A stretch of 64,000 nucleotides of DNA, taken from NCBI GenBank assembly GCA_963514005.1, contig OY740785.1, positions 10,912,001-10,976,000 on the forward strand. Reading direction: 5' to 3'. Both the position numbers and the translations under genes were made by a program. The notes below the pieces were generated by a model. The model did no database searches. It saw only the letters and a list, made by a program, of their open reading frames with translations, and was not told where the DNA came from. Shown here piece by piece: positions 16,726 through 43,380 of the stretch (position 1 is the first letter of the stretch; every line of letters starts with the position of its first letter). This stretch comes from Raja brachyura. Taxonomy: Eukaryota.

Positions 16726-16828
16726 GGATAGAGACTGGAGGAGTGGTTTTGAAAGATCCACACAGTTTGTCTGAAATACAAACTTCAGCTCCAATCTCGC
16801 TGCAGTGTCACATTAATGGACACCCCCG
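16726..16828 (+). CDS. PTK7: PTK7 exon 3 (Ig2 N-half)
   Basis: ttattacAG / GTATGC; (W)IETGGVVLKDP...ISLQCHINGHPR; 103 nt, phase 1 to 2. Confidence 0.95.
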
Positions 16829-20299: not shown

Positions 20300-21410
20300 A
20301 ATCTGTGACCACGTATGCCTTAATGATTTAAGTGTTTATCTCAAAGCTAAAATGTAATGAGTACCTGCCCACACCACTTCCTTGTGTAGTGAAGAGTACC
20401 TGCTTCCATCCTCCTTTGGGAAGTGCGTGCAGATTCCAATCACCCGCTTGAATGAAATGTTATTCTTTGGCTTCCCTATATATCTCTCTTTACCCTATAT
20501 CTATGCCTTCTCATTTTAGCTACCCCTGCAAGGGTGAAAATTTAATATATTCACCCTTTCAGTGCATTTCATCTTACAATACGACTATCGGGTCCCCCCC
20601 TTAGCCTCTTCCCCTCCATGAAATCTACCCAATCCCATAACTGAAACACTATCCCAGGCAACATCCTGTGTTGGGTAAATTTCCTGTGCACCCTCTCCAA
20701 TGCAATCATGTGGCAACCATACATGCACAGTGTTCTATCTGTGGCATAAGCAATGTTTTATAACGTTATATCATAACCTTCCTGCATTGTATTCAATTTT
20801 CTGACTAATGAGTGCTTATATTCCACATGCGTTCTGCACCACACTGTAGACCTGTGCTGCCATCTTTAGATTCTTGGGCTCGTGCGCCAAGGACCCGTGT
20901 TTCTTAAGACTCCCTGGATTTATTTTATAATTCAATGATAAGGAAGGGAATTGCAAAACTTTTGAATTGATTATGGTCCATGGTGTTAAACAAGTTACCT
21001 GGGGCACACCCTTTGGGTGTCTAAGTGCAGTCAAGAACCAACATGCTTTCCATTTTACTACTCATCTATATTAATTTCCAATGTCAAACATTCAAAATCA
21101 AGAACTTAAAAACAACAGTACCGTGTTGAGTTATGAATGATCGTATCATCAAATAACCATTCCTGTACTGGGGGAGGTGTAGCTGTGAATTGACAATGAA
21201 ACATAGCATCTTCCTCCTTATTCACAATCTGGTCACCATTCACTAACTCTGGCCTAACATTATTAGTCCCACCATCGTGCACTGACTTGCTCTTATCAGG
21301 ATTAAGTTCCATCTGACATTGTTCTGTCCATTTTACCAAATCCTCCTAACGATAAAGTGCAGCACCAACTTGGGGCCTTGTGGAACCTTGTCAAGGACCT
21401 TTGTGAACAC
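20300..21410 (-). mobile_element. Old CR1 LINE fragment split by the exon-5 inverted copy
   Basis: CR1 sequence runs to ..aagactccctgga (20918) and resumes at accattcact..ggattaagttccatctgaca (21235), encoding KWTEQCQMELNPDK. Confidence 0.75.
20921..21234 (-). pseudogene. Inverted partial duplicate of PTK7 exon 5 plus the start of intron 5, lying in intron 3
   Basis: Reverse complement aligns by hand to 26930-27244 with about 14 substitutions and 2 single-base indels; minus ORF 21106..21339 contains DQIVNKEEDAMFHCQFTATPPPVQEWLFDD. Confidence 0.95.
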
Positions 21411-22022
21411 CTTGTAATTAATTTTTCATCTACAACTAATTAGTTATATAATGGAGAGAAAGAGTTATGGGTGCAGATTGATTTGAGAATTTTTCAAGAA
21501 ATTGGATCAATACTCAAAAGTAATCAAAACCTCCGGGAAGAGCAGGAGACTGGGACTCACTGGATTGCCTCACCACAAGTGAATACAAACTCTGGTCCAA
21601 ATGACTGCATCTGTGCCATAATAATTCCAATTGTTATTCTAAATATTATTATGGCCTCAGATTGGTAGTAGTTCCTAAACCAACATTTCATTTTTATATG
21701 GTGGTTCACAGTGACAGTAGGGAATGTACGGTGTCACTAACTCTTGATATCAAGTATCCGGCTTTCTCTACAAGTTCCAGGCGACTCTCATCTTCAAACA
21801 GAAATTTGTAATTGCCTACTATCAAGAAAAATCTCCTTCATAGTGTTTATCTTAAATGCATTTCTTTTCTGCAGTTGGCGTGTTACTATGTTGATTATTT
21901 ATTTAAACCAACTGAAATAGTTCAGGAGCATGTTGTAACGTGATATTTTTCTAGCACCATTCTGATCCAAATCTTGTTTTTCATATATTCCTTGTCTTGT
22001 TTTATTCCTCCCCGCATTTTAG

Positions 22023-22210
22023 TCCAAGCTGGCAGTGGTTCAGAGATGGCAGTCATTTGACAGATACAAATCATTATACATTTAACACCAGAGAGCACAG
22101 TTTGACCATAAAAAGTGCCAGTCCTGATGATAATGGTGTCTACTACTGCTGTGCAAAGAACGCAGTTGGAAATGTTTGCAGCAATGATAACTTCACACTA
22201 ATGATAATTG
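22023..22210 (+). CDS. PTK7: PTK7 exon 4 (Ig2 C-half)
   Basis: cattttAG / GTAAGT; PSWQWFRDG...SASPDDNGVYYCCAKNAVGNVCSNDNFTLMII; 188 nt, phase 2 to 1. Confidence 0.95.
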
Positions 22211-23289
22211 GTAAGTAGTGAACCTTGAACCAGATAACTGCTGTGAATCAATTTTAGTTGCAGGATATGTTATTAATATCTATATATAAACTGACAAAAA
22301 CACCAATAGCTTTCACCATTATGTTGAAAATAATAAGAGCTTACCATTTGGTTAATGGACATAAATGCAGATAAGAACATTGAATAAGGCAAATCAAATG
22401 GTTGATTAATTTGCAGAGATAATGGGATAAATCTTCACGGAAAACCAATTAGAAGTATGGTAGTGATAAAGCAGCTAAATACCAGTGTCTTGGATAAATA
22501 ATGGAATTTAGACTGTTAACAATGTGGAATTTGGAACAACAAAAACTAGTCTTAATAAAGATGACCACAGAAACCATTAAATAGTTGAAATAAATCTGGT
22601 TTACTCTTGTCCTTCATAGGAGGATATCTATGAGAATGTCATCTTTATCCAGTTTGTCCAATATGTCGTTCCACAAGGTACCCTCGTATGTCACCAGACT
22701 ATTTTTTAGTCAATTAGGTATTCTGAAAATCTGGGGCTTCATAATCAGCTTTCTTTATGCCAGGTGTTTTTTCCAGGTTTTCAAAACTGAATTCAGTGTT
22801 GGGTAAAATTTGACCATGTTTTATGTATTCTCTCTCCAGCCCTCTATATTAGCTTAATTGCCAAAACACTGCACTATCGTACCTTTTGTGAGCCTATTTG
22901 TTTCTCCTGCTGTAGTCCTGGAAGAGGTCTGCTTACAAATTCCCCATTTTGCCACCCCCTCCATTATAGTTGACTTTGTTGGCTCAATATCCACTTATGT
23001 CCCTTTACATTTTGTTGAAGTATCTTGGAACTCAGTTTCTACATAAGCAGACTCACCACAAAGTACTATTGCTAAAGCTATTTCATGAAAAAGGCCAAAA
23101 GCGATACAATTCAAAGGGGCTCTTTGTATCTCCCATTATACCTGTAACAAATATAATTTGTTTCCCTCTGTGTCACTGAAATTAAGTCAGACTTTGTTGT
23201 GTATGAACTGTGAGCAACCATTGTTTCATAATATAGGCACAATAGATGGCCAGGGGACTGCTACCTGGATATTGCATGTTCTAACCATC

Positions 23290-24780
23290 TCCTAGGAAAA
23301 GTCATAATTATAGAGGACAGAAACATGAACCTGTTCAATGTATTTTAAACATTATTATTGTATCCTCTCCCTGCCACTCCTTCTGGCAGCTCATTCCATA
23401 TATTTACCACATTTGGTATGCAAACCTTGCCCCTTGGGGCCACTTTAAATCTATCCTTCTCACCTTAAACCAGTGTCCTCTTGTTTTCTTCTCCCCTGCC
23501 CATATGACCATCCGCTCATCATGATTTTATAAATCTCTATAAAGTTACTCTTCAGCCACCCACACTTGAGGGAATGTGTAGGAAAGAACTGCAGACACTG
23601 GTTGAAATTGAAGATAGACACAAAATGCTGGAGTAACTCAGCAAGGCAGCATCTCTGGAGAGAAGGAATGGGTGACATTTTGGGACAAGACCCTTCTTCA
23701 GACTGAAGTCATGGGAGTGTAAGCTGAACTCTCGTCAGAGAGAGGAGGAGAACTTCTTCAAAGTAGACACACCTTGAGGAGATCTCGCAGTGAAGCAGAC
23801 ATAAAGTGTAGGAAAGAATTGTAGATGCTGGTTTAAATCGAAGATAGACACAAAATGCTGGAGCAACTCAGCGGGACAGGCAGCATCTCTGGAGAGAAGT
23901 AATGGGTGATGATTTGGGTCGAGACCCTTCTTCAGACAGGGGAGTGTCTCAGCCTATGCAGTCCATCCAGTTAATCCTTATAACACAAGTCCACCCGTTA
24001 TGGCAATATTCTTGTGAATCTTTTCTGTGCCCTGTCTAGCTGAATCGCATCCTTCCTCTTGTGTGTTGAAGAAAGCTGCACATAATATTCCACGCGTGCT
24101 TTCACCAATATTGTGTCCTGACTCTTGTACTCAATGCCCCATCTGATGAAGGCAAACATCCCAAATGTCTTCCCAAATTTGTGTATCTGTGTCACTTGGT
24201 CTCTCTGTTTTACAATGCTCTCCAGGGCCCTGTTATTTTCTGCGCATTATTTGGCTTGATTTAACTTCCAAAATGCAACACGGTGCACTTTTCACAGCTG
24301 CCTTTTCTTTCCCAGTTAATCTAGATCATGTTGTAATCTTAAAGCAACCTTATTCACTGTCCAGCATACCACCAATTTTGATGTTGTGAGCTTACTTACT
24401 AATCATATCACCGACAATCGCATCTAGATCGTTAATATGTATGACAAACAACATGGGACTCGGCACCAAATCTTGCAGCACATCACGAGTCACAGGCCTC
24501 CAATCTGTAAGACATCCCTATAAAACCTCCCTCTCATTCCATCCACAGAGCAATTTTGTATCTAATTGGCTAGCTCGTCATGGATCCCATGTGATATCAC
24601 CTTCCGGACCAGCCTAACCATATGATATATTGTCAAAAACCTTGTTAAAGTCCATGCAGACAAAATCTTCTGCCTTGTTCTCATCAATCTTCTTGGTCGC
24701 CTCTTTAAAAAAAAACACATTCAAATTCGCAGACGTGATTTCCCACGCACAAAGCCATGCTGACTATCCCTCCTTAGTCC
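23290..24780 (-). mobile_element. CR1 LINE fragment with a Penelope-type partial tandem repeat inserted at ~23576-23937
   Basis: ORF remnants FIRWGIEYKSQD, LDRAQKRFTRILP; two direct copies of gtgtaggaaagaa..gacccttcttcagac about 230 bp apart. Confidence 0.8.
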
Positions 24781-25029
24781 AAAAGTTACAATAATACGCA
24801 TAATAATTTAGGAGACTAACTTATGTCTGTGACCTTATATGATTGAGATAGCTTAAGTTGTGATGCGTACCTGTATTGACCCTTTCACGATTGTTAGACC
24901 TAGATCACGTCACATTACAGCCTTTTCAAACGATAAGCTTATGCACCCATTTACTGAAGTTTAATTCTTGGTCCTAATTCAATTGTCCCACTTCCTACAG
25001 CCCATTGAGCCTCTGCTGGTTCTCAGACA

Positions 25030-25505
25030 TACTGTCCATCAGTGGATATTCTGTCCCTTGTGATGGAGAGATCAAGAAAAAGGGGGGAGAGGTGTCAGAG
25101 ATGGTCCAAGTGTATTTGAGGGCAGAATGGAAGTCAGTTAATGAAATCAACGAGTTCTGCACGGATGCAGGAAGCAGCCCCAATACAGTTGTCAATGTAG
25201 CAGAGAAAGAGTTGGGGGATGGTACCAGTGTACATTTGTAATGAGGACTCTTCGACGTAACCAACAAAAATAGCTGGGGCCCAAGTAGCCCATGGCTACA
25301 CCTGTAACTTGGAGAAAGTGAGAGGAGTCGAGGAGGAGTTGAGGGTGAGCACAAGTTCCACCAGGAGGAGGAAAGTGTTAAATTGAATGGGTCTCTGTTC
25401 AAGGAGGAACCAGAGGGTTTTGTGACCCTTGAGTCTGAAGAAGGGTCTTGGCCCGAAACATCGCCTATCCTTTTTCTCCAGAGATGCTGCCTGACCCGCT
25501 AAGTT
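25030..25505 (-). mobile_element. Penelope-like element RT fragment with an inverted terminal piece
   Basis: LTDFHSALKYTWTISDTSPPF resembles the Penelope RT motif FHPALKFTWTISDTSLPFLD; abuts a + strand hammerhead-bearing repeat at 25431-25505. Confidence 0.75.
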
Positions 25506-26203
25506 ACACCTTTCCTGCTAAGTATTCAAGAGGTTAGGGTTTATTTAGCTGTGATAATTCTGAAATTGAAAATCAACAGAGGCTGGGTTTTAAGTACAGG
25601 CAGAAACATTCTTGCTTATCAAGAATTTATTTATCTGCCTTAAAAATATTCAAAGAATCTACTTTGATTGCACTTTGAGGGAGAAAGTTGCAAGTCCTTA
25701 CAGCTACCTTCAATAAGTTTAGATTAATCTTCCCATTAAATGGGAATCCTTTATTTTTAAACAGTGTCCCCCTTTTCTAGATTTTTGAAAGGAACTATCC
25801 TCTCGATTCTACCCCCTCCCTAATTTATCTGCTGTCGGGGCTTTTTTTTTGCCTGCCCACCTTATCTCTTGTTGCCTTAAACACTTTTTCAAATCATCAC
25901 TTTCTATCTTGTACTATGTCATCCAGGTTTTCAATATGGTTCAATTGCTCCATCTCAGGTGTAACTCCAGTTAAAACAAAACAGAACAAAACAAAGTTGT
26001 GCCTGAAACTGATTCCATTATTCCACATAACGTCTAACAACAGTTGTATATAATCATAATTGTGTTTGCATTCTGCATCTCTCATGGTTACATTCTGCCT
26101 CATTTTATTTGAAACTGTGAGGAAACTTTTAATGTCTTTTCTACACTGGAATCCCTAAGTACCTTCACTTGCACCATATTGTGCTGGCATATATTCTGTA
26201 GAC

Positions 26204-26700
26204 CAAGGGTCAGCATCCTTGTTCTGCATAGGGGCTAGGACGCATGACTGTGAGTGGATGGCGGGCCACATCTACCACGTGTACACATGGATCCCGCCCC
26301 GGATGGCAGGCATCAAATCACATGTTCAAATAGATCCCGCCCCTTCGAGGACGCCAGCCGGAGCACTGACCCCGAGTTACTCATTGTCCCCGACCTATTG
26401 ACAGCCCCGATCACAACAGTGAAGCCCAGACACAGAAGGTGCGCGGCCGTGCCGGCGGCTTTGCGCAGGATGAGGTACGACCAGCACTCACCGCTGCTCG
26501 CCGGCTCCACCATTGTGGCCGCCAATACAGGCCTCCTTTCGCCACTGTGCCTGGGCACCGCAGCCTCGGGCCAGGGTGGTACCGGAGATGATGGAAGTCT
26601 GCGGGCCAGATGATTACAGAGAAAGAAATATGCCTGCGGGCTGGATGATTTTGGATTACGGGCCGCATTCGGCCCAGGGGCCGTAGGTTGCCGACCCCTG
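26204..26700. mobile_element. Non-autonomous hAT (Charlie-like) transposon
   Basis: TIRs caagggtcagcatcct / aggttgccgacccctg; 8 bp TSD ctgtagac (26196-26203) / ctgcagac (26701-26708). Confidence 0.85.
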
Positions 26701-26894
26701 CTGCAGACCCATCTGTAATTCATGCAGCTAAGTACATTTTTATGAAAATTCACATATTGTGAATGTCTCTACGTATATGTTTAATCTCAAAATCTGGTTT
26801 TTGGCAGTTCAAGTAAATGAACACTAGTCATGGATTAACCATGATGTTTTACTGTGCACAGCAAAATGTAAGATTGCACAATAATGTTTTTCAG

Positions 26895-27042
26895 ATGCAA
26901 GTTTTCCACAGCCTTTGATCCGTCCCCAGGACCAGATTGTAAATAAGAAGGAAGATGCCATGTTTCATTGTCAATTCACAGCTACACCTCCCCCAGTACA
27001 GGAATGGTTATTTGATGATACGATCATTCAGAACTCAACACG
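26895..27042 (+). CDS. PTK7: PTK7 exon 5 (Ig3 N-half)
   Basis: gtttttcAG / GTACTG; DASFPQPLIRPQDQIVNKKEDAMFHCQFTATPPPVQEWLFDDTIIQNSTR; 148 nt, phase 1 to 2; not in the ORF track. Confidence 0.95.
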
Positions 27043-28229
27043 GTACTGTTGTTTTTAAGTTGTTGATTTTGAATGTTTGACATTGGAAAATAATATAGTT
27101 GAGTAGTAAAATGGAAAGCATGTTGATTCTTAACTGCACTTGGACACCCAAAGGGTGTGCCACCAGGTAACCTGTTTAACACCATGGACCATAATCAATT
27201 CAAAAGGTTTGCAATTCCCTTCCTTATCATTAAATTCTAAAATATATAGCATGGAAACAGGCCATTTGGCCCAAGTAAACACTGACAGCAATTGATTTCG
27301 ATATGAGATCCTGAATCTTTCCTCATCCAATTATCATCTCTCATGTCTAAATTTCCCTTAAATTGATCTCGACTGTTCGCTCCACGCTCTGGTAAAGAAG
27401 TGTCTACGGAATTCATATTGATATCTTGAAGGGGTCTAGTTTTCCCGACGATGTCCGTCTATCATTTTGATATATCTCAATCAGATTATCTTGGTATTTT
27501 GTCATGAACAGAGATTCAGAGCATCCTTTCCTGATTGCTATAGCCTTGCAATTCTAATATGCTTCTTGTAAACAATGCACACACACTTTGCAGCACTTCA
27601 TTTGTAAGAAAGAACTGCAGATGCTGCTTTAAATTGAAGGTGGATTCAAAACGTTGGAGTAACTCAGCGGGTGAGGCAGCATCTCTGGTGAGAAGGAATT
27701 CCTTCTATCCAGAGATGCTGGTACTCCAGCTGTTTGTGTCTACCTTTGCAGCACTTCATTCTCTTCATAATAAAGTGAGAAAAGTGAAATCAAATACTAC
27801 AAATGTAGTTGATCTCCTCCAAAAGCCAACCTCTTCTACTCATAATTTAATGTAATATTCCATGCTTATTCACGTGAAAACATTTGATAAATGTGTGCTT
27901 AATTTGCAAGTTTATAGATGCTATCTTGAATCGTCGTTGTATAACTCCAGGCTTGATGTAATTGGCAATTTTTGAAGTTATGTGGGCTAAATTGTGAAAA
28001 TTAATTGTGAAAGAGTGTGATCTTAATAATAATGCTTGTTTCTCTCCCCCACCCCCCCCCAACACCTTCCCATCCTACAATTCCCCACTCTATGCCACAT
28101 TCGATAGCCACCCCATAATCTTAGTTCTGCATTCTCAGCCAATGAACTGTGCAAGTTGCAGTATGTTCCGTATTGACACCATGATCTGCCCACATTATAA
28201 GGTAGCTGATCCAAAGTCTTTTGAAATTT

Positions 28230-29510
28230 GGACAATAGGTGCAGGAGTAGCCCATTCGGCCCTTCGAGCCAGCACCGCCATTCAACGTGATCATGGCTGA
28301 TCATCCCCATCAGTACCCCATTCTCCCTATATCCCCTGACTCCGCTATCTTTAAGAGCTCTATCTAACTCTCTCTTGAAAGTATCCAAAGAACCGGCCTC
28401 CACTGCCCTCTGAGGCAGAGAATTCCACGGATACACAACTCTCTGTGTGAAAATGTTTTTTCCTCAACTCCGTTCTAAATGGCTTACCCCTTATTCTTAA
28501 ACTGTGGCCCCTGGTTCTGGACTTCTCCAACATCGGGAACACGTTTCCTGCTCTACTGTGTCCAAACCCTTAATAATCTTATATGTTTCAATAAGATACC
28601 CTCTCATCCTTCTAAATTCCAGCGTATACAAGTCCAGCCGCTCCATTCTCTCAGCATATGATAGTCCCACCATCCCGGGAATTAACCTTGTGAACCTACG
28701 CTGCACTCCCTCAATAGCATGAATGTCCTTCCTCAGATTTGGAGACCAAAACTGCACACAATACTCCAGGTGTGGTCTCACTAGGGCCCTGTACAACTGC
28801 AGAAGGACCTCTTTGCTCCTATACTCAACTCCTCTTGTTATGAAGGCCATTCGCTTTCTTCACTGCTTGCTGTACCTGCAGGCTTACTTTCTGTGACTGA
28901 TGAACAAGGACCCCCAGATCCCATTGTACTTCCCCTTTTCCCAATTTTTCCCATTTAGATAATAATCTGCCTTCCTGCTTTTGCTACCTAAATGGATAAT
29001 CTCCCATTTAAGCACATTAAACTGCATCTGCCATGCACCTGCCCACTCACCCAACGTGTCCAAGTCACCCTGCATTCTCATAGCATCCTCCTCACAGTTC
29101 ACACTGCCACCCAGCTTTGTGTCATCTGCAAATTTGCTAATGTTACTTTGAATCCCTTCATCAAAATCATTGATGTATATTGTAAATAGCTGTGGCCCCA
29201 GCACCAACCCTTGCGATACCCCACTAGTCACTGCCTGCTATTCTGAAAGGGACCCGTTAATCCCTACTCTTTGTTTCCCGTCTGCCAACCAATTTTCTAT
29301 CCATGTCAGCACTCTACCCCCAATACCATGTGCCCTAATTTTGCCCACTAATCTCCTATGTGAGACCTTATCAAATGCTTTCTGAAAGTCCAGGTACACT
29401 ACATCCACTGTCTCTCCCTTGTCCATTTTCCTAGTTACATCCTTCCAGAAAAAATTCCAGATTAGTCGAGCATGATTTCCCCTTCGTAAATCCATGCTGA
29501 CTCAGACCGA
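28230..29510 (-). mobile_element. Relatively young CR1 LINE, 5' truncated, frameshifted RT
   Basis: VDVVYLDFQKAFDKVSH, GVSQGLVLGPQLFTIYIND, SKFADDTKLGG, LYRALVRPHLEYCVQFWSP. Confidence 0.95.
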
Positions 29511-31046
29511 TCATGCATGGGCAAGTAACATGCTCTGCATTATCTATGCCTGTTCATGCCTTGGATTCTTCAGACTGATTAAATGTAAATTCACAATTCA
29601 AGTAATAAAGTTCTACAAATACCTGAAAGATTATTTGATAATGGTGCTTGTTTCAAAGGTACTGCCTGTCCTTTTAATACCTGATCTTAATGGCTTTCCC
29701 TGTATAAGCCTGAAAATATACAAAATGTAATTACTGCATAATTTCCCAATTCTTATCAAAGATCTTTGACCTGAAGTATTAACTCTATTTCATGGAAACG
29801 TATTCACGGAACGTATTCACGGAAACAGGCTCTCCAACCCATCTTGTCCACGCTGACCAAAATTCTTACCCAAGCTTGTTCCATTTGTTTGCAATTAGCA
29901 CATTATCCCTCTTTAACCTTTTTTGCCTATGAATAACTTTTGTTTGCAACAAATGCTACCTGACCTGTTGCATGCCTCCAGTACTTTCTATTTTCATTTT
30001 CTATTTCCAGCATTTGCAGTTTATTTAATTTTGGGTAGTGGTGATTTGACAAATTCAGCTCCACTTTGGGCAATACATTTCAGGACTTGCATTCGACTAT
30101 AGTGTGGGGAATTGTGAAGTAATCCATTTTAGTAGTGAAAACAAAAGAGTAGTACATTGTTCAAGTAAATTGCCTTCTGAATGTTGTTGTGAAGTTGGCA
30201 AATAAATGCTGCAATTAGGAAGCTAAATGAAATGTTGGTACTGTTTCCTAATTATCTGCGGCATCTATATTGCAAAAGGAATGGAGCGTAAAGTTAGGGA
30301 AAGTCTTGCTATAATTGTTTTGGGCTTCATTGACAATGCACCTGGAGTAGTGTGTACAGTTTAGGTCAGGGCTGATGTCATCACCCTTTTCCTGCCAATT
30401 GATTTTTCTGTAGATCAAAAATCTGTCTTGATCTGAATATATTCAAAAACCAATCCTTCACAGCACTCTGGGCCGGCGAATTCTAAAGATTCACAATCCT
30501 CGAGAAAGAGAAAATTACTCCATTTCCATTTTATGGGGCCAGTCATGCAGCACGTGAACAAGCCCTTCGGTCCAACTTGTCCATGCTAACCAAGAAGCCC
30601 CATCTAAGCTAGTCCCATTTGCTTGCGTTTGGCCCCTAAGCCTTTCCTTTCCATCAACCCATCCATGTGACGTTTAAATATTGTTAAAGTATCTGCCTCA
30701 ACTATGTCCACTGTATGCTCATTCCATATACCCAGCACCCTCTGAGTGGAAAAGCTGCCCCATGGTCGGCATGGGCAAGTTGGGCCAAAGGCCTATTTCC
30801 TTGCTGCATCACTCAGATTCGTATTAAATCTTGCCCCTATAACCTTAGGCCCATGAGCCCTTGTTTTTGATTACCACGGTAAAAAAACTGTGCATTTGCT
30901 CTATTACCCTCATGATTTTATACACCTCTATAAGATTATCCCTCAACTACCTGGTCTCCATACAATATATATATATATATATAGTAGACACAAAATGCTG
31001 GAGTAACTGAGCTGGTGAGGCAGCATCTCTGGAGGGAAGGAATGTG

Positions 31047-31075
31047 TGACGTTTCGGGTCGAGACCCTTCTTCAG
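31047..31075 (-). ncRNA. Minimal hammerhead ribozyme core in a Penelope-type repeat
   Basis: Minus strand CTGAAGA-a-GGGTC-tc-GACCC-GAAA-cGTC; a second intact core at 34746-34774 (-). Confidence 0.55.
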
Positions 31076-31934
31076 TCATTCCTTCTCTCCAGAGATGCTG
31101 CCTGACGCGCTGAGTTACTCCAGCATTTTGTGTTTACCTTCGATTCAAACCAGCAATTCTTTCTTACGCATGAAGTGCTGCAAATATTTGTGTGTGTGTG
31201 TGTGTATATAAACACACTCTCACTGTACTTTTTTTTCATTATGTTTAAAGTTTGCAAAAGGGCATTCTAAATTTTTGATTTAACTGCAAGCAGAAATATT
31301 TTCCTATTTTTGCTTGAACATGTGTTGGTTGTTGCCTTTTAAAGGATTAGTGGAGTTAAATGGGACAGGAAATAACGTCCATTTGTTGAAATCATGCAAA
31401 TCAATTACTTTTAATCTAGATTAATGTTTAAAAATTTGTATCTGTTTTTGGAACAGAGCAAGATAGCGTTTGGTGGGAGGTGTTGAAACATTGAACGGTT
31501 TAAAAATTCTTTGGTTTATCGCATCCTCGTAAATCCCCATTGCTAGCCTTGTCAACTTCCCCTAGCTATGTGTCCAGTAACATTTCAGTTTAAACATATT
31601 TACCTTCAATGGTAATGTCTTAATCTTACTGTAATCAAACTCTACATGCCAAGTCTGAAGTGGCCTTATTGCCTTTGGGATCCTTGGTTTTGCAGAGCTG
31701 CTTGGCTGGCTATACTGCTTTTAATATGCAACAGCTGGCTAAATCTACACAAGTGACCTCTTCCCGTTACAGTCCTTTAAACCTCAGACAGTTGGCATCA
31801 TCTCAGTTAATCAAGTGGGAAGGTATATTTTGAGATGGGGAAAATATGCTTTGATGAGAAAAGTGAAGATTATTCAGATCTATTGGTGTTGGAGCATTTG
31901 AAACTAATACATGGCATTAAGGTTGTGTGAAGAA

Positions 31935-32480
31935 AGGAAGCCATGCAGTAGCTATACTAAACCTTCGGTAAACCGCAAGAATATTGTGTACACACCAAAG
32001 GAAGGATGTGGTAGCAATAGAAAGAGTGCACAAAAGGTACTCCACAATGTTGCCTAGTATGGAGGACTGTAGTTACGAGGAGAGATTGACGAGCCTGGGG
32101 TTATTCTCACAAGAACGTAGGAGGCTGAGGGGAGACCTGGTGGAGGTTAAAAATATTGAGTATGTAGATAGGATAGCTGGATAGCAGAATCGTTTTCCCC
32201 CAGTGCGGGAGAGCCTAGAACTCGCAAGCATAAATTTAAATTGGGGGAAGGTATTTGAAGGTCTATTTTTCATAGAAGTTATCTGAACAAAGTTCCAGAG
32301 GAGATGTAAGAAGCAGGTACAATTACAATGTTTGAAAGACATTTGAAGCAGTACATGGATAGGAAAAGCATTGATGGATATGGGCCAATACCAATAATAG
32401 GATTAGTGATGGTAGGCATCATGATCTGCACAGTCAAGATGGGCCGAAAGGGCCTTTTGCTATGATGTACAATTCTATGA
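31935..32480 (+). mobile_element. CR1 LINE 3' fragment
   Basis: RKDVVAIERVHKR..YEERLTSLGLFSQERRRLRGDL. Confidence 0.85.
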
Positions 32481-35400
32481 ATGATGGTGGTCTGGATGTG
32501 AAATTTTCAACCTGAAACAGTTGGGCGAGTAGAAAACTAAATTGCTTTGAAAATGAAGTTGAATTAATGTATGAATTTAGGTGGCTTATTAAAAAGGGTG
32601 AAGGAATGCATTAAAATATCCAGTTCTTTAATGGGAAGGAGAAATGCGGACAAATAGCTCCTTTCTGAGGTGTGAAATATTTAGATTAGAAAAACCCTTT
32701 TTTCCCCCCATGCCTCTGTTGCCAAACAGTGTGGTTTCCTTCTGGAGGAAGTGGTTGAAATCAGAGGAGCTTGACATTGGGGCTATGTGCCTTCTGGAAC
32801 TCGAGAACTTCAAAGTCTAGAAACAAAACACTTAGCTGTCCTTGGAGAAAACAAAAATATGCCCCCAAAACAAAAGCAAAATAATTCATGCTTTTTTTGA
32901 GCAGTTTTATTTTTGATTTCCACAAACATAGGGAGTAATACATTGTTCAAGTAACTATCTTTTATTTAAATCTGAGCCTATGTTTAACATTCTACTATAT
33001 TGTACATGGCAATACCTAAACTGCTGGACATTTTATAATTATTGAACATTTAAATTAATGCTGACCAACCTTGCCATCCCTGTCTTTCATCTTTACAGGA
33101 ACATGCTGGTCCTGGATTCTAACCAGCTGGTCTTTAAAATACTCCCACATGTTAGATGTGGATTTTCCCAAGAACAGATGTTCCCCATCTACTCTCCACA
33201 TCTATTAGAATTAGTTCCTGTTTAATGCTAATATATGTAGCCCTCTCCCAATTTAGCAATTTATCACAGAATCCAGTCTTATTGCAACAAGTCTTAAACT
33301 TAAGGAGTTATGATCATTGTCCTCAAAATGCTCTCCCACTGAAACCTCAATCACTTGGCCAGGCTCATTAAACAAGGTTTAGCATGACCCCTTCCTTGTT
33401 TGGACTATCTGCATGCTGTTTCAAGAAACCAAACTGTGTACAGTTTTGATTTCCATATTTAAGGACACATTTGAAGAAGATTTATTGGAATGATCTCTAG
33501 AATCAAGGGGTTGAAAAATGAAGTAAAGATGAAAAATGATAGGTGAATTTACTGAAATGTACATGATTCGGAGGAGAATTTACAAGATAGGATCTGGGAG
33601 AATGTCTCTTCCCCCCCTCCCCTTCCCTGGTTTCAGAACAATGGGTCACCTATTTCAGATGGAGAGGAAGCAATTCCCTTTCTCAGACGTTTGTGATTCT
33701 GAACTTCATAAAGCTGTAGAGGTGCAGTTATTGAGATTGAGAGACATGTAAACTGCAAGGGACTGGGGGGCATGGGAGAAAATAGGGATGTGGTGGTGAG
33801 TCCAGAATTGAATCAGCCATGATCTGTTGCATGATCTGCCTTGAGCAGGCTCAAGGGACAGTTGCTATTAAGCTCTTTCTTATCTTAAATCTCTCCTGAG
33901 GCAAGACCTGTCAAACTGAACGAAGTCTGACATCTAGTGGAAAGTCATCTATGTATGTTTGTGATGGTGGAACCACTGGCATGTGTGCATGTGCCATTAT
34001 GTAACCATCTAAAGCCTGAGGAAATCTATGTATGCTACCAGTCAGCAACTTGATCTTTTTGAGAGAGGTAGTTGACAAGGGAATTATTTGGAAAGGGAGA
34101 AATGATAAGAATTTCAATGGAGGCACATTTTACACTATGGCAGTAAAATCATGAAGTCTAATAAATCTAAAGATTTCCCGCATTTCCAATACCCAAATTA
34201 GCATTGTTTCTTAAAATGAAGATTGGTAATGTGGAAAGGGAGCAACTGCTCCAACCGTTTCCCGGGTTGCTAGCTCTGATGTTTGTCCAGAGATATTGCC
34301 TCTAACATCAACGACACTATCGAGCTCAAGAGCCATTTTCCCCTCTTTGTTTCTCACTCATTGAAAACGTTCTAAAATGTCAACACTCCTTTTTGACCAT
34401 GAATTTACCATCCGCTCAGTGCCAGAAGTCCAGCTGTCAGATAATTTTTACAATTTGTAGAATAGAAAGACTTTGAAGCTTTTTGTGTTCTTCTCGTATG
34501 CTAGCCATCAGATCCCAGAGACAAGCTGCTAAAATGATTTGTACTGGTTCCCTGGTTTGAAATACTTGATGGACAAAAACTGTGTGGTTCATTGTTTTGG
34601 GATTAATGTTTGACTGCTGCTTTAGTGGAGGAGGGCAGAGCTCTTGGAATTTGGAGCAATGTCAACAAAGCATTATCAGAAGATAGACAGAAAAAGCTGG
34701 AGTAACTCAGCGGTACAGGCAGCATCTCTGGAGAGAAGGAATGGGTGACGTTTCGGGTCGAGGCCCTTCTTCAGGCTGGTTAGGGATAAGGGAAACAAGG
34801 ATGTTCATGTTAAAATGTATTTGGGTGTCTCGTTGCTCTTTATTGGTATGACTGTATGGCAAACATTCCTCGTGTGTTGCAAAACATACTTGGCTAATAA
34901 AGTACTATTATGATTATGAAACTTGCAGGATTCTTATTGACCTAAAAAATGTTGTTTGGGAAATGGCTGTACCCAAAACTTGTTCCTACACTACTAAGAT
35001 CTGTTTGTTGCATCTTTTAATGAGGGCACTGAAGATGAAACCTTTTGTCAATTATTCACCCTTCAGTTCCCTTTGATTAGAGACCTTCATACTCGTAAAC
35101 TCAGCTCTGATCCTCAAGACTATGTGATTCAAGAGATGCTGCTGAACATTTCTGCCTTAACATGGCCTTGATAATGGAGATGTGAAAAAACACAGGAACC
35201 CTTGCTGCTTTGATCTTAATGAAAGGAGAGAAACAAAGAAGCAAAAAGCATTGGCCACAAAAGGATAGCTATCACTTTGTCTTTCAACAGGATGTTAAAT
35301 GCATGTGCTAATTTCACAATGTCCACTGGAATTGGGTGATGTCAAAGCCCTAAACTAAGGAATTTCTTCCCTAAATTGGGCTAATTCAAAGAGCAGTACA

Positions 35401-37613
35401 ACACAGGAACAGGAGACACCAGAGACTGCAGAAACTGGAATCTGGAGCAACAAAATCAATCTGTTGGAGGAACTCAGTTGGTCGAGCAGCCTATGCAGGG
35501 GGAAAGGAATTTTTGACTTTTCGGGTCAAAACCCTGAGTCAGGCTTGACCCACTGAGCTTCCAATTTCCAGCTTGTGTTTCCAGCCAAAGAGGATGCTCT
35601 TTTTGAAACATAAGACAAATGCAGTGGATTCATAGTGGAGCCACCACTGCAAATACTCCTCCAGGGTGCACCATTCTAACTCTGGCTGTATTCCATTGTC
35701 AGAATACCTGCCAATTCTTTCATCACAGGCATTACATTCGCTCAGGAAAGTTATCCATAACTTGAGTAAGTAGGAATATGTATTAAATGTTTGCAAAGTC
35801 CAAATTACGTTAATAAATATTAAAAATACGTTAGTTTATTCGGGTCAGGAAAGTTTGTGGGAGCTCCAAAATTCAGAGCAATAAATATAAGGTAGTAATA
35901 AATCCGCTGAGGAATTTGGGAGAAAGTTCTTTATCCAAATGGTTGCAGAATGGACCTTGATAGAATATGTGCCTTTTTACAATACTGCATGTGACAAATA
36001 CTGTATTACCTTTATGTTACTGTATTTTTCCCCTAGTATAGATGAAGATATTTCCCTAGATCATTATCAAAACGTATATGTATGAGGGGCCATATGAAGT
36101 TTATTTATGAATTAAATATTCATGACTAAATGTGGCAGAGTTTTTAAATGTCACACTTTTGGTGTGACTTTTGGTCAAAATGGTGGGAAAATGATGAAAA
36201 TTTGTCTGTTATGACAATGTTTTTGACTTTTGGTCTTGAAGTTACCTAATTTATATCTGCTATTTATAAGGTTTCACATGATGGGTAGAGTTTTGTTAAG
36301 AACAGTGTATTGGTGTAAAAAAGTGAATACTAACCTTGTTCGTCAAAAATTCTCCAGTATTGTAAAAAGACACATATAGACTATTTGAGCTCAAAAGGCT
36401 GTTTCTGTGTTGTAGTTTCTGAATGTTTTTTTGTCAAACTGGTCCCTTGTTTCAAGCACTTTCCAAAATGTCAGATTCTGTCCTCTTGTTCCACTTTGCA
36501 TTGGCACTTGGTTGTGTACAGTGTGGATTTTAAACTTTTCAGTTGTCTCTGCTGCCACTGACTGGGACTCTAACAAACATTGTAAATGTAATTGTCTGCA
36601 CCATGCGTCTAGTCGTTTGGATTTCTGCCCATGATAGCTCACAATGCATTTAAAGCTTGAATTGCCACTTGATCGACTGATATTTTAATTTGTACTGCTG
36701 TTTAAAGAATCAGAGTTTGTACTAACTACTCGTTGATACATTTCAGTCTAAAATATATTCATGAACATTCACGTGATTGGTCTGCCAAGGTCTACTGGAC
36801 TCCGAGTTGCTAAGCATTCCTCTTCCCATATAGTCCTCTGCCCATATAGCTCAAGTGTGCACAATGCAATTATGAATTTATTTCAAATACTTTTATTTGT
36901 TGTTTGCATATGGATTTATTCAGTAAAAGTAGTGCTCATTGTTAATTGAAACCCCTTGAATGCAAGGGTTTGCTCAGCTATTTCAGGCAGCCGTTAAAAG
37001 TCAACTATATTATATTGATAGGGATTCCACAAATGTCAGACTCAGCAAGGATGACAAATTCCTTTCCTCTAAATGTATTTAAAAAACAGTTTTGTTTTAT
37101 TGTTTATTTTCATGTGTATCGAGATACAATGAAAAGCCTTTGTTGTATGCTAACCAGTCAGCGGAAAAGCAATACATGATTACAATCTTTCGTTTTGGTT
37201 CTTCCACATTTGGCAAACTTTGTACTGATGTAGTTGTTTTTTTAAATTATAGAGGCATAAGATTGTGTGAAAAAGACTTGAAAGATTGATTGCAGCTAGA
37301 CCACTTATCAGAGAAGAATCAAGAGGACTGCAAATGCTGGGATGGTGAATCTCAGGGATACTGGAGGATTGGGCAGGCCAGATAATTGGGTATATATAAT
37401 AAAGTAGGCATGTCAAGGAAGTGAGGGCTATGCAGAACTAGTGCAGGAGCCGATTCCTGAGGTGGATCAGTTATGATCATATTAAACAGTGGGGTAACCT
37501 TCAGTCGTTGGCTATTCTTACGTCCTTATGATCTTGCATGAATGGAGAAGACCGTGAAAAGAAATACATTTTAATTGGGTGAATACAGTTATTGGATAAA
37601 GCAAAACAAAAGT

Positions 37614-37950
37614 GGGTGGCACGGTGGCGCAGCGGTAGAGTTGCTGCCTTACAGCGCTTGCAGCGCCGGAGACCCAGGTTTGATTCCGACTATGGGTGCT
37701 GTCTTTACAGAGTTTGTATGTTCTCCCCGTGACCGCATGGGTTTTCTCCGAGATCTTCAGTTTCCTCCCACACTACAAAGATGTACAGGTTTGGAAATTA
37801 ATTGGCTTGGGTTTGTATACTTGGTATAAGTGTGAATTGTCCCTAGTGTGTGTAGGCTTATGTTAATGTGGAGATGTGTTAATATGCGGGGAGCACTGGT
37901 CATTGTGGACTCAGTGGGCCGAAGGGCCTGTTTCCGTGCTGTATCTCTAA
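37614..37950 (+). mobile_element. HE1-like V-SINE
   Basis: Same structure as 17445-17745. Confidence 0.85.
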
Positions 37951-38227
37951 AAATAAGGTCACCAATATAACATAGACATCTAAAAATCAAATTAGCAATT
38001 TGTGAAAATTCTTTACTGTGAATGGTGAAACATACTACAGAATGGTGAATTGATTATAATCACCTGGTAATTGTGTAGGAGGCATCACATTTAGCATGTA
38101 GTTTTGGTGTTATTATGTTCTTTGAGTCATAGTTAAACAAAATGAAAATATGCCCTTTGGCCCAACTTGTACCAAGGTGCCTTCCCGAGCGCACTCATTT
38201 GTCTCCATTTGGTCCCTATCCCTCTAA

Positions 38228-38545
38228 ACATAGAAACATAGAACATAGAAAATAGGTGCAGGAGTAGGCCATTCGGCCCTTCGAGCCTGCACCGCCATTC
38301 AATATGATCATGGCTGATCATCCAACTCAATATCCTGTACCTGCCTTCTCTCTATACCCCCTGATCCCTTTAGCCACAAGGGCCACATCTAACTCCCTCT
38401 TAAATATAGCTAATGAACTGGCCTCAACCACCTTCTGTGGCAGAGAATTCCACAGATTCACCACTCTCTGTGTGAAAAATGATTTTCTCATCTCGGTCCT
38501 AAAAGACTTCCCCCTTATCTTAAACTGCGACCCCTTGTTCTGGAT
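38228..38545 (-). mobile_element. CR1 LINE 3' end with (catagaaa)n tail
   Basis: Matches 28230-28520; inserted into an older CR1 tail. Confidence 0.85.
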
Positions 38546-38689
38546 TTTTCTTATCCATAAAACGATTCAGATGTATTTTAAACATTGTAATTCTACCAGC
38601 TACTGCCACTTCTTCTGGTAGCTAGTTCCACATTTGTACCATCCTCTGTGGAAAATCTTACCAAGCTGATCCCCATTATATCTCTAAGG

Positions 38690-39490
38690 CTACAATAGGT
38701 GATGTAGTAGGCAGTGAAGATGGTTATCAAGAATTACAGCAGGATCATGATCTGCTGGACAAGTGAGCCAAGGATTGGCAAACAAATTTAATTTGGGCAG
38801 TTGTGAACTCTTGCATTTCAGAAGTCAAACCAGGGCAAGACCATCACAGTGAATGGTGGGGCCTTGGGAGAGTGTTGTGGAGTAATCGTGTTGAGGAATA
38901 GTTTCCTGCAAGTAACGTCGCTGGTAGATATTGTGGTGAAGAAGGCTTTTGGCATGGTGGGATGTTATGTTGCAGTTATACAACGCATTGCTGAGGCTGC
39001 AGTTGGAGTATTGGTTGAGTTTTGTTTTCCCACAATAGAAAATATACCAATAAGCTGGAAAGAGCAGAGTTGTGAGGATGTTGCCAGCACTTGAGGGCTT
39101 GAGACAACGGAAGAGTTTGGGAAGGCTAGGACTTTACTCCTTGGAGCACAGGAGGCTGAGGGGTGATCTTATAGAGGTGTATAAAATCATGAGTGCAATG
39201 GATTGGATGTATGCACACAGCCTTTTTTCTAGGTTAGAAGAATCAAGAATTAGAGGGCATACATTAATGGTGAGAGGGGAAAGATTTAGTAGGAACCCAA
39301 AAGGCTTTTTACAGAGTAAGGTTGGAACATGCTGCCAAACGAAATAGCTAAGGCAGGTTTACGAAGAAAAGGCATTTGGACAGGAAATGTTTAGAAGGAT
39401 ATGGGCCAAATGTAGGCAAATTGAACTAGCTGGGATGGGGATCTTGGGCAGCAAGGAAGAGTTGGTGTCATGCTGTGTGACTCTGACTGT
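38690..39490 (+). mobile_element. CR1 LINE 3' fragment
   Basis: LGRLGLYSLEHRRLRGDLIEVYKIM; similar fragments at ~50020-50370, 52680-53170, 59880-60375 (+) and 61545-62260 (-). Confidence 0.85.
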
Positions 39491-39993
39491 AATCCAGGAG
39501 GACACCTAAAAACAGACTCTGAAAAGTTCTCTGGACATATAATGTGGCTTCTTTATACACTCACCAGGGAAATTATTTTGAGGAATAAGGAAACAAAGCG
39601 AGTATTTTGTGTCTGCCTTTACAAAAATCACAGAACACCTCTTAAAAACCATGGGGAACAACCGTGACTGAGGAGTTGAAAGAAATTACCATGAGATTTT
39701 AAAGTATTGCATAAAATTGTGAGACAGAAAGCTAATAAATCCACGGGACCTGATACCCTTAAAAGAGATGAGATGGCTTTCAAGATGATGGATACAACGG
39801 ATGTCGTCTTCACAAATACCTGGAATTCTAAGTTGGAAGAAGATAGTAAATGTAATTCATCAAAGAGAAACGGGAGAACTGTGGATCAGTTAGCCTGTTT
39901 TCGTTGGTATGGAAAGTCTGTTCTTCACAGAGTGGTGACAATGCAGGTACAAAATAATAGAGTTGGTCATAAGCAAGGTTTTATGAGAATATA

Positions 39994-40940
39994 CTAGACC
40001 AAGTGGGACCCATTGGGTCGCGTCCCCCGACGCGGGGGGGTGGGGGGTGGGGGGGGGGGGGGGCGTGCGCACGGAGTCACAGGGGAGGGCTGGTCCCCGA
40101 ATGCAATATTCCACCACTCACCCATAGGTCTCAATACTCACCACTTCTTAGAGAGGGAGGGGAAGGGGGGGCGAAAGGGAGGGGGGTAGAGACTCTACCC
40201 CATCTCCTTCCTCCTCATTTCCCTCATCCTCATCCTCCTCCCCTCACTCCCATTCCCTGCCCCAGGACCTACACAGGTCGTAGAGCAGCGCCAGGGCCTG
40301 GAACTCGGCCTGGTTTTCATACTCGACTCGGCCCTGGCTGTAGGCCCAGGCTGGGCCGCCACCTGGCTCCAGCCCCGGCCCAAGCTCGTCCTTGGTTCCA
40401 GCGACAGCCTCCAGCCATCAGCTCAGCCGCTGCCTGGGCTCCAGTGCAGGTTCCGACTTCACGGTCCCAGACCCTGGACACAGACTCGTCCTTAGTTCCA
40501 GCGGCGACTTCTGTATCGGCCCCAATCATGGCCCCATCCCAAGCCCCGGGCTCGGCTCTCACTCCAGCTCGAGCACCAGGCTCGGCTTCAAGCCAGGGCC
40601 TGCGGCACCACCCTCGCCACCAGGTGTTGGACGTCGGGCGCTGGCAGCTGCCGTACTAGCACTTTCGTCCCGGAGTGTCCCATCCTGCCATGCGAGTTCA
40701 TTGTGATGTCACTCGGGGGGCGTTTTAAAAACTTTAAACAATTAAAAAGTTGGGAAATATAGGTAAGAATGCAACGGGAAGATTTTTATCGCCTCGAGGG
40801 GAAAATGTGAGTGGAATGTGTGAAAATGGAAAGGCTGTGGCCTAGTGTTTGGAAGAAAATAGGAATTAACCAGATTGTGCCCAGATCTCTCTCTCTCACA
40901 CGCACGCACGCAAACAACATGAGTGTTTTAGTATAATAGA
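39994..40940 (-). mobile_element. Complete non-autonomous Helitron (947 bp) inserted into a CR1 fragment
   Basis: Minus strand A|TCTATTATAC...gacccaatgggtc hairpin..TTGGTCTAG|T; no TSD; flanks rejoin as CR1 sequence. Confidence 0.85.
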
Positions 40941-41416
40941 TACTGTAAATCTGTTCATTTTTTGAGGTTATAACAAGCAGCATAGTTCCAGGAGATGCAG
41001 TATATCTGTGCATTTGGATTTTGGAAAGGTTTTCGAGAAGGTGCTCCACAAGAGATTAAGCCAAGTTAAGATTTGTGAAATAAATCAGGATTTGTGAAAT
41101 AAAACAGAAAACTGGGAATAAAATGGCTATTGTTGAATTGGGAGACTGTTATTGTGGGATACTGCAGAGATGGGTTACCTTGGCTGTTCACTATCTTTAT
41201 CAGTGATTTAGTTGAATGGCAAGTGTAACATATGTACAGGTCTGGTGATGATAGAAGGCAGGGTGGCAGCGTGTGTTTGAATGAGAATGCAAATAAACCT
41301 TTGGGGACTGTCGATGTTAAATGGATGAGGATGGTGTTTTGAACTGGAAAATGCAACAAAAGGAGGTACAAACTAATGCTTACAGTTTTTAAAAACTTTT
41401 AATCTGCTCTCCTTAG

Positions 41417-41547
41417 GACTCTGGTATATGCTAATGGATCTCTGCTGCTTACCAATGTCAGACCTCGCAGTTTTGGTGTGTATAAATGTGTTGGTCGGGG
41501 CCCAAGAGGGAAGCCCACTGTGATGGAAGCTGCTCTCCGCATGGCAG
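41417..41547 (+). CDS. PTK7: PTK7 exon 6 (Ig3 C-half)
   Basis: ctctccttAG / GTATGG; TLVYANGSLLLTNVRPRSFGVYKCVGRGPRGKPTVMEAALRMA; 131 nt, phase 2 to 1. Confidence 0.95.
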
Positions 41548-43113
41548 GTATGGATAATGAACCATTCTCAATTGTCAAGAAGTAGGATTAAGTCAGTAAT
41601 ACATTAATTTCTACAAGGGTAGAAGTGTAATTACACATTGAAAAGATGAGGTAACCAGTCTTGCAGCACAGCTAAATATACATCATACACCCAACACATT
41701 TTGTGAAAATGACTTGACGAAGGAAGCCATTGGGAAGGTATCTTTCATGCCCTTGATATCTCTCATCTTCTGAGAAAATATCAACGTCTGAAATATTTCT
41801 GCACTCCTGCAAGTCCCTCACAGGTAGCGCTGCTATAATGTTGTAGCCGTGTTCCTAAGAAACCATGTATTGTAGAAAACTATGTTGTAAACATAATTAT
41901 GGCAATGGAGAAAAGGGGATTATTTTTCCCCTCAGGATTTTCAAAAGTAAATAGCATTTTTAAATAGCATATTTTTGTTACTACAAGCATAAAATTTGAA
42001 AGGCTTATGTTACATTGTTCAATATAGTATCATTGTACAAGTGTCAACAGAAGTGATCACACCGTTAATTTTAATGGCTACCCATGATGAAACTCGCAGC
42101 TCTTCTCAAGAGACAATGAATGGTATGTGATTACTGCTGGGAAGCTACATGGAAAGTTTTTTTTCCCCAAGACAGCTTATTTTTCCTGCTTATTATGCAA
42201 TTGCTATTGTATATAATAAACAGTAGAGCATTGATTCCTGGTCATACGCTTCCATCATTAAAACAACCTTCAGGCTCCTATAATCAGCAAATTAGGAATT
42301 CAATTAAGCAAATTTGCCAATTTACTTTGAGTCTTTTGGACTGCTACCTGTAAAACCAGTCTCCCATATGGAATGTAAACAGACTGTCCAAAACACTCAG
42401 CAGTTCGGGCAGCATCTATGGAAAGAGAAACAGCTAACAGTTCGGATCTGAGATACTTTTTATGGGACTTCATCAAAGACGTTACTGAAGTTTGTGTAGA
42501 CTTCATCAACAACACCCCCTTCATCAATAACTTTGTTAACTCTTTGAAAATGTTGGTTAAATTGGGCAGATAGGATCTTTTCCTAGCAAAGACATACTGA
42601 TACAGTTTAATTCATCTCAGACTTTGTAAATGTAGATTAATCCAGCCCCCTAAAAAAAATTCCTAGAAGATAAGAGATATCAAAGAAAGGCAAGAAAGAT
42701 ACCTTCTCAATGGCTTTCTTTGATGATAGATTCGATGATTTGTACTAACTGTTGTCCCTGCTATCCTTCTTGAATACATGTAGCAAATTTGTTGTCTTTC
42801 CGAAAGATTTGGCACCTCACTTTTGACAGTGAAGATTAAAAAATCTGCAGAGCCCCATCTTTTGGCCATGGAGAATGTATGTTAGTATTGAACACTGATC
42901 TCTGAAGTTGTGAGTCTCTGCTAGTTATGCCACTGTGCCCGCAACAAATTACTGAAAGCCTTTCTTGAGACTATTTTGTTTAGTTTTTGACAATTAGTTT
43001 CTGTAAGTAATAATGTTGTTCCTATCAGAATGATGCACAGAAATATAGGCTCACTACTAAGTAAAACTATTTCAACTACTATGTAATTATTTTATTTGTG
43101 TTTTAAAATTTAG

Positions 43114-43380
43114 AAATCCATGATATGCTTACGTTCAATCCAAGAATATTTATTGCAAATACCACACAAGACATTGAATGTTCACCACCAAGAGGACTGC
43201 CTCTGCCTGTTGTGGGATGGTACAGGGGCAGTGCACAAATTCCATCTGAAGGTCGTGTCTATCAGGCTGGCAATAAACTGGTTTTCAATGAAACATCACA
43301 GAAAGATTCAGGAATTTATACCTGTCATGCTAAAAACAAAGCTGGAGAGAAGACCAGTGAACTGAACATCACTGTGGCAA
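43114..43380 (+). CDS. PTK7: PTK7 exon 7 (Ig4)
   Basis: tttAG / GTAAGG; EIHDMLTFNPRIFIAN...CSPPRGLPLPVVGW...DSGIYTCHAKNKAGE...LNITVA; 267 nt. Confidence 0.95.

Follow-up and report, generated by a model that had tools for sequence, protein, structure and literature searches.

PTK7 exons and an inverted copy in intron 3

The window, by which we mean the whole 64,000-nucleotide stretch of skate DNA analyzed here, holds part of PTK7, whose exon 1 lies ~76 kb before it. Exon 3 (16726..16828, + strand, 103 nt) ends in phase 2 and carries the first Cys of Ig2; taken alone, it had no match in Pfam. Exon 4 (22023..22210, +, 188 nt) encodes Ig2 from strand C on, and Ig3 is divided between exon 5 (26895..27042, +, 148 nt; first half) and exon 6 (41417..41547, +, 131 nt; second half). 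The donor of exon 4 is strong (8 of 11 U1 matches), and that of exon 5, ACG/GTACTG, is weak, with 5 of 11 matches, the lowest among PTK7 exons 2 to 7.

Within intron 3 of the same gene, a 317-nt stretch (20918..21234, - strand) is the reverse complement of 26930..27247 (+ strand), with 94.97% identity over 318 columns in self-BLAST (E 2e-141) and 16 differences (15 substitutions and 1 gap). The source arm takes in the final 113 nt of exon 5 and continues through the GT donor at 27043 into intron 5, of which it includes 205 nt; the copy would form the left arm of a predicted RNA duplex, with exon 4 in the 5695-nt spacing between the arms. An earlier note, made by reading the sequence, had described just such an arrangement (~95% identity, ~200 nt of intron 5, arms ~5.7 kb apart around exon 4), and our alignment bears out both the relation and the coordinates, the best alignment being 3 nt longer at one end. 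It had also taken the arm for unique gene sequence. A genome search with the arm agrees, returning source and copy as its 2 matches, a count to be read as at least 2. In a census of inverted pairs (at least 150 nt, at least 85% identity, within 30 kb) over 1.064 Mb of the same genome, the PTK7 pair was the 1 of 54 made of two-copy sequence. The arms are thus not members of a dispersed repeat family, and an inverted transposon pair with Alu-like looping out was ruled out on this ground. Inverted pairs of this length are common in the same genome, given 22 others of at least 250 nt and at least 90% identity in 1.06 Mb.

Origin and age of the copy

An old dispersed repeat is split by the copy into a left part at 20400..20917 and a right part at 21235..21348. 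Other members of the family run across the insertion point with ~4-6 extra nt, pointing to a loss of ~4-6 nt at the site as judged from diverged copies (L005, L016, L018, L021 and L025) rather than from a true empty allele. The host repeat may be LINE-like; it does not match the RT fragments of the window. Judged against the same diverged copies, the ends of the insert show neither poly(A) nor a target-site duplication. No microhomology is seen at the left junction. Because the copy also crosses the exon/intron border unspliced, a retroposed (processed) gene fragment was ruled out. Antisense exonization of the copy was dropped as well: under crude scoring, its + strand has no pyrimidine-rich acceptor, nor any donor reaching 7 of 11 U1 matches. 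What remains is an inverted, unspliced copy of unique sequence from nearby in the same gene, with a small loss and neither hallmark of retroposition, which are features of the template-switch class. It seems likely that the exon 5/intron 5 stretch was pasted backwards into the repeat in intron 3 by local template switching while DNA was being replicated or a break repaired.

Two relatives bear on the age and reality of the copy. Relative C differs from the window by 1.5%, relative F by 5%. In relative C, a two-copy contig stands at depth 15, compared with 7 to 11.5 for single-copy contigs; three contigs meet at each of its ends, and a flank contig stops ~28 nt into the copy. This geometry indicates that relative C carries the copy with the same exon-side boundary. 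In relative F, an unbroken contig of single depth crosses 26698-27623, and the copy is likely absent. We infer from contig geometry that the copy arose once, after the split from the 5% skate and before the split from the 1.5% skate. The comparison covers 40 difference rows out of 1122, 15 joints out of 19504, 24 loose ends out of 20516 and 32 pieces, and is dominated by repeats; none of those 15 joints is a splice joint. The stretch compared spans neither exon 3 nor the copy, and an exon 3-exon 6 junction lies outside its direct view. Word shares of other relatives (0.76 for B, ~0.3 for D and E) are uninformative on the presence of the copy. Run X14, with the same organism label from a different sample, resembles low-coverage DNA; run X17, RNA by guess and 4.2% from the window, yields a contig with exons 4, 5 and 6 and is at most a non-carrier control.

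An assembly artifact is scarcely credible. The two DNA runs with the highest word share (0.97) may be the assembly's own sample, and in this species the arm pair is known from the assembly. However, the window holds no N, and the arms differ at 16 sites. The gene arm itself has departed from the copy at 5 sites; the copy keeps an ancestral His codon (a His/Gln site recognized by comparison of elasmobranch proteins) as well as three intronic bases that also occur in other skates. Misassembly is also unlikely because contig geometry indicates the two-copy state, with the same boundary, in the 1.5% relative and its likely absence from the 5% relative.

Pairing of the arms and its possible consequences

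The earlier note proposed that a ~315-bp duplex would bury the exon 5 donor. Such a duplex is very stable by prediction, at -506 kcal/mol for the sense RNA in this model (-528 for the antisense), with the donor fully paired. Even so, we favor, at a probability of about two in three, reading the copy as a template-switch inverted duplication that is tolerated and decaying and has no selected role, with the duplex forming rarely and exons 4 and 5 normally included. Intron 3, where the left arm lies, can be removed as soon as exon 4 has been made, 4.7 kb ahead of the appearance of the right arm. The copy is likely harmless because intron 3 would be removed before the second arm is transcribed; with the left arm gone, the duplex would rarely form, and therefore exons 4 and 5 would normally be included. 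That the donor under the duplex is the weakest among PTK7 exons 2 to 7 is a point against this reading.

The manner of decay speaks for a tolerated, decaying copy. Fifteen of the 16 differences break a pair, one gives G-U and none is compensatory; among eight transitions, seven produce an A-C mismatch and one a G-U (P = 0.035 one-sided, 0.07 two-sided). Of 400 random-decay runs, 96% left a stronger sense duplex than the one observed (P = 0.04, one-sided). Among the difference rows listed, ~9 of the 16 differences seem absent from the arms of relative C, compared with 4.7 expected (P of ~0.05); the two terminal 31-nt windows contain 6, compared with 0.9 expected. A point against our reading is that the arms are 5% apart in this species but look nearly identical in relative C, although the species differ by 1.5%, a contrast poorly explained by strict neutrality. 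Other aspects are ordinary under random decay: the longest stretch of unbroken identity (71 nt, P = 0.26), the split of differences between exon and intron (P = 0.43) and the intact donor (P = 0.57).

One can envision from these biases that a minority of transcripts form the duplex, to mildly harmful effect, through skipping of exon 5 or of exons 4 and 5, exon 4 circles or promiscuous A-to-I editing, and that selection in this lineage favors changes weakening it; 27 of the 38 paired exonic A's would recode if edited. We regard this as unlikely. The tests were all post hoc and based on only 16 differences, the contrast with relative C could equally reflect gene conversion in C or removal of an assembly bubble, and the donor itself has no mismatch.

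Editing could instead be the purpose of the copy, if it served as an editing-complementary sequence that guides ADAR to particular sites in exon 5, such as the Lys codon at 26948, which would be recoded to Glu. ADAR favors A-C mismatches and disfavors a 5' G. The exonic part of the duplex has two A-C mismatches, a silent one at 26941 and the recoding one at 26948, but A26948 is preceded by a 5' G, the Lys is kept in 18 of 18 elasmobranch proteins compared, and both mismatches seem absent from relative C among the rows listed. With the copy likely absent from relative F, neither duplex nor mismatch appears to be conserved across species. The G at 26941 in run X17 is also found in DNA runs X7 and X15, and thus is an ancestral allele rather than editing. 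Site-selective recoding is accordingly a very remote prospect.

The earlier note's main proposal was a possible built-in antisense splice switch. Its geometry, frame arithmetic and claim of a unique arm hold up, and the duplex predicted over the weak donor is very stable. Exons 4 and 5 sum to 336 nt and can be skipped together in frame (189 to 77 amino acids), and skipping either one alone leads to a stop codon, in line with the phases and the frameshift on loss of exon 5 that the note gave. The selected switch lacks support, with pairing eroding beyond random decay and the gene moving off the copy at several sites. We find highly improbable a switch under selection, whether toward an in-frame PTK7 lacking exons 4 and 5 or as an NMD off-switch. 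The copy is indicated in two species, and exon skipping has human precedents in CHM and MANBA, but decay is biased against pairing, and the in-frame product would be an Ig hybrid without strand C and its core Trp: all three Trp's of exons 4 and 5 are lost, and two Cys's stand 31 apart, compared with 46 to 51 in native domains. No such isoform occurs among the 9 matches to an exon 6 protein query or the 11 cluster-1 members reaching exon 3, sets in which no copy-bearing species is known. The exon 6 query gave 9 matches among 10 candidates and was not exhaustive (P0003 was missed); a query with exon 4 is inherently blind to forms lacking it. Heavy skipping is in any case unlikely to be tolerated, because defective splicing of PTK7 has severe effects in mouse (PMC2930600).

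A related reading, also improbable, is a dial gated by splice order. Late removal of intron 3, in certain tissues or in the cold, would let the 318-bp duplex bury the weak donor, giving NMD, a form lacking Ig2/3 or an ADAR-recoded protein; mismatches would tune its strength in each species. A skate lineage would thereby have fixed, in an essential planar-cell-polarity receptor, an exon-masking inverted duplication of the kind behind human disease.

The tolerated duplication that we prefer is probably an ordinary repair scar, and its value is that of a natural experiment. This type of lesion skips exons and causes disease in humans, whereas the skate version seems common to two species, in a gene in which missplicing is severe in mouse. 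With apparent carriers and noncarriers among close relatives, it becomes testable whether splice order, by taking out the upstream arm first, can shield a donor from an antisense arm of 300 bp, and whether such duplexes are worn down by selection. Should regulated skipping or editing prove true, the copy would amount to a young splice regulator built from the gene's own exon.

Relation to known systems

Editing-complementary sequences of the GRIA2 type are short, conserved and edited at demonstrated sites. Like them, the skate arms would pair exon with intron beside a donor and leave A-C mismatches. However, the predicted skate duplex is long, young and decaying. PODXL is a further case of this class (PMC9382340). 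Inverted Alu pairs, including that of TBXT (PMC13019944), share the long-range pre-mRNA duplex with an exon in the loop, exon 4 in the skate; in those pairs both arms are intronic repeats, whereas the skate arms are unique, one of them lying over coding sequence and a donor.

Closer in kind are two human lesions. In MANBA, a 13.1-kb intragenic inverted duplication of exons 8 to 11 was pathogenic, with skipping and microhomology demonstrated (PMC6549551). Like the skate copy, it is an inverted insertion in an old repeat with a small loss (67 nt, compared with ~4-6 nt), and multiexon skipping is the predicted outcome; unlike it, the MANBA lesion is far longer and new. In CHM, a 1,752-bp intragenic inverted duplication placed a copy of exon 12 in intron 12, with exon skipping demonstrated and disease in one family (PMC8756506). 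Here, too, unique gene sequence with an exon was copied backwards into a nearby intron, a template-switch origin was proposed and a hairpin is predicted over the exon. The CHM copy, however, holds a whole exon with both splice sites, compared with a partial exon and donor in the skate, and lies downstream across a loop of ~0.3 kb, whereas the skate copy lies upstream across 5.7 kb, in an intron whose removal can come first. The skate copy, known here from DNA alone, also seems common to two species and has decayed by 5%.

Inverted copy of exon 5 in PTK7

The Leucoraja erinacea PTK7 protein aligns exon by exon over the window (98% identical at exon 4, a similarity that marks the animal as a skate-like batoid), with exon 3 at 16726-16828, exon 4 at 22023-22210 (188 nt), exon 5 at 26895-27042 (148 nt) and exon 6 at 41417-41547. 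Upstream, exon 1 is about 76 kb from the window, and intron 1 spans about 89 kb (from position 10836248 of contig C5 of the same genome to window position 13546). A layout of 20 exons and seven Ig domains is described in PMC11518688.

The copy in intron 3 (20918-21234, minus strand) and its source (26930-27247, plus strand), which runs from the final 113 nt of exon 5 through the donor into intron 5 (205 nt), are 94.97% identical over 318 columns (E 2e-141), differing by 15 substitutions and one 1-nt gap. This was the single outstanding inverted pair in the self-comparison of the window, and with 26880-27260 as query, the skate's genome gave two matches, source and copy, as a lower bound. Across 1.064 Mb (464 kb around the window plus three 200-kb samples), 54 inverted pairs reached 150 nt and 85% identity within 30 kb; 53 were multi-copy repeats, and the PTK7 pair was the only two-copy one. 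The earlier note was therefore right that the arm is no ordinary transposon pair. Long inverted pairs as such are nevertheless common in this genome, given 22 others of at least 250 nt and at least 90% in the same sample. The copy is real, cleanly mapped and a known kind of lesion.

Other repeats occur in the window and elsewhere in the genome. The segment 10976-11255 forms repeat-family inverted pairs with 28231-28501 (85% over 281 nt, predicted -418 kcal/mol) and with 38238-38524 (76% over 290 nt), which would loop out PTK7 exons 2-5; an old inverted pair within one intron joins 59889-60374 and 61820-62296 (68% over 504 columns, predicted -433 kcal/mol). At 47849-49430, in a PTK7 intron, two 234-nt direct repeats (90%) flank a 218-aa frame with Pfam DUF7041, a short LTR-element-like insertion, and a similar direct pair lies at 10989639-10991315 of C5. 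A Tc1/mariner-type transposase fragment (HTH_Tnp_Tc3_2; 924-1571, minus strand) has inverted ends at 3-69 and 1643-1708. On contig C20 (10118876-10125609), a two-copy sequence is duplicated locally and directly, about 2.4 kb at 94%.

Origin and age of the insertion

The sequence on either side of the copy comes from a single old dispersed repeat, with 40 matches for one flank and 21 for the other. This repeat, perhaps a LINE, gave no match to the window's RT fragments. In three genomic copies of this repeat (L005, L016 and L018), both flanks match the same repeat copy in order, spaced about 6-10 nt wider than in the window with the insert subtracted; by eye, 4-5 nt between two flank motifs in several repeat copies are missing from the window. 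Neither a target-site duplication nor poly(A) was found at the copy, which runs unspliced across the exon/intron border. These features fit a templated insertion, copied from 6 kb away where DNA had broken or a fork had stalled, and speak against retroposition.

The region is present in public runs from several organisms, of which four runs, all as contigs, were compared over 21600-41599. The reading is an inference from contig ends and depths, since repeats dominated the tables, in which 40 of 1122 differences and 15 of 19504 joints were listed. Organism C (run X7) differs from the window at 115 of 7833 nt (1.5%). Its contig over the source arm has depth 15 versus 7-11.5 for single-copy contigs, three contigs meet at 26941 and likewise at 27232, end distances delimit the shared stretch as running from 26930 to about 27237, and the contig of intron 3 and exon 4 stops about 28 nt into the copy's position. 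We infer a collapsed two-copy repeat with its boundary as in the window; for this reason misassembly, the last of four rival explanations, is an unlikely source of the copy. Organism F (run X15, 5.3% away) likely lacks it, since a single unbroken contig covers 26698-27623 at single-copy depth and another extends 1039 nt left of 21600 without a break. This contig pattern does not account for one extra record at 27126 in X15, nor for extra records at 26941 and 27099 in X7. Run X14, from another sample under the label of the window's organism and apparently low-coverage DNA, covers 26960-27164 without a difference. By the pattern in organism C and the apparent absence in organism F, the insertion likely fell between the splits from F and from C.

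Decay of the predicted duplex

At 27029-27031, exon 5 carries a Gln codon and the copy a His codon; His occupies this residue in 14 of 18 elasmobranch proteins and Gln in none. The His-to-Gln change at 27031 breaks a pair 12 nt ahead of the donor. Since the copy's letter at 26941, 27099, 27126 and 27232 is also common to organisms C, F and H, the comparison points to the gene, not the copy, as what changed at these five sites.

No compensatory change occurs among the 16 differences. In the sense RNA, seven of eight transitions produce an A-C mismatch and the eighth a G-U pair (p 0.035 one-sided, 0.07 two-sided). The predicted duplex (-506 kcal/mol sense, -528 on the antisense strand, -581 if perfect) is weaker than 96% of the duplexes obtained in 400 simulations with equal numbers of changes; the longest perfect run (71 nt), the exon/intron split of differences and the intact donor are all at chance level in simulations. 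About nine differences appear to be missing from organism C's arms, versus 4.7 expected (p about 0.05). Taken together, these post hoc tests (simulations, A-C/G-U bias and the comparison with C) show no sign that pairing is selected for and hint weakly that it is selected against. The latter would be in keeping with the foremost rival, that the duplex does mild harm as a side effect and is being eroded.

Judged by contig ends, the arms look nearly identical in organism C (26930-27237, X7) versus 5% apart in the window. Decay may have been faster in the window's species, C may have undergone gene conversion, or the assembly may have smoothed differences away.

Splicing and comparison with known lesions

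The earlier note proposed a built-in antisense splice switch. Its reading-frame arithmetic held on computation: joint skipping of exons 4 and 5 stays in frame (189 to 77 aa), and skipping exon 5 alone breaks the frame and reaches a stop. Skipping exon 4 alone reaches a stop as well. The exon 5 donor (ACG/GTACTG) matches 5 of the 11 letters of the donor consensus, the lowest of exons 2-7 by this crude score; that of exon 4 matches 8 of 11. Intron 3 contains the left arm; transcription reaches the right arm 4.7 kb beyond the donor of exon 4, a strong one. Were intron 3 excised first, the left arm would go with the lariat; splice order reportedly tends to be fixed per gene (10.1101/2022.08.12.503515).

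On the 90-position Pfam I-set profile, the start of exon 4 falls at 30 and the end of exon 5 at 44, so the exon 3-exon 6 hybrid would lack the stretch between; it has no Trp and a Cys spacing of 31 versus 46-51 in the seven native domains, and likely would not fold as an Ig domain. A protein lacking exons 4 and 5 did not appear among nine hits to an exon 6 query, none of them known to be from a carrier. Elsewhere in the gene, exon 7 (43114-43380, Ig4) is skipped in frame in annotated isoforms of stingray (P0002) and basking shark (P0006).

Among the runs listed for the region, none was recorded as RNA; run X17, presumed to be RNA, comes from organism H (4.2% away, not known to carry the copy). 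A 1745-nt contig at depth 222.8 lies over exon 4, the same depth recurs in exons 5 and 6, and end distances fit the exon starts, which indicates normal exon 4-5-6 splicing in organism H; no splice joint for these exons was among the 15 of 19504 joints listed for the comparison. A third-ranked rival holds that the copy guides editing, but the G at 26941 in X17 is genomic, not edited, because organisms C and F carry G in their genomes.

We commit to the inverted copy being a tolerated scar. A function for it is somewhat argued against, and a selected switch ranks second among the rivals; we consider a working one very improbable.

No report of the inverted copy was found in the literature on PTK7 in skates and cartilaginous fishes or on PTK7 splicing, a survey of mostly non-subscription main texts. 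In mouse, a splice mutation of Ptk7 leads to severe neural tube defects (PMC2930600), inverted Alu pairs promote exon skipping, as in TBXT (PMC13019944), and PODXL offers a comparison for ADAR editing and complementary pairing (PMC9382340). In human CHM (PMC8756506) and MANBA (PMC6549551), part of the gene is duplicated in inverted orientation within it; template switching is given as the cause, skipped exons were seen in cDNA, and the lesions are linked with disease. Inverted intragenic duplication is common to CHM, MANBA and skate PTK7, with skipping observed in the two human genes.
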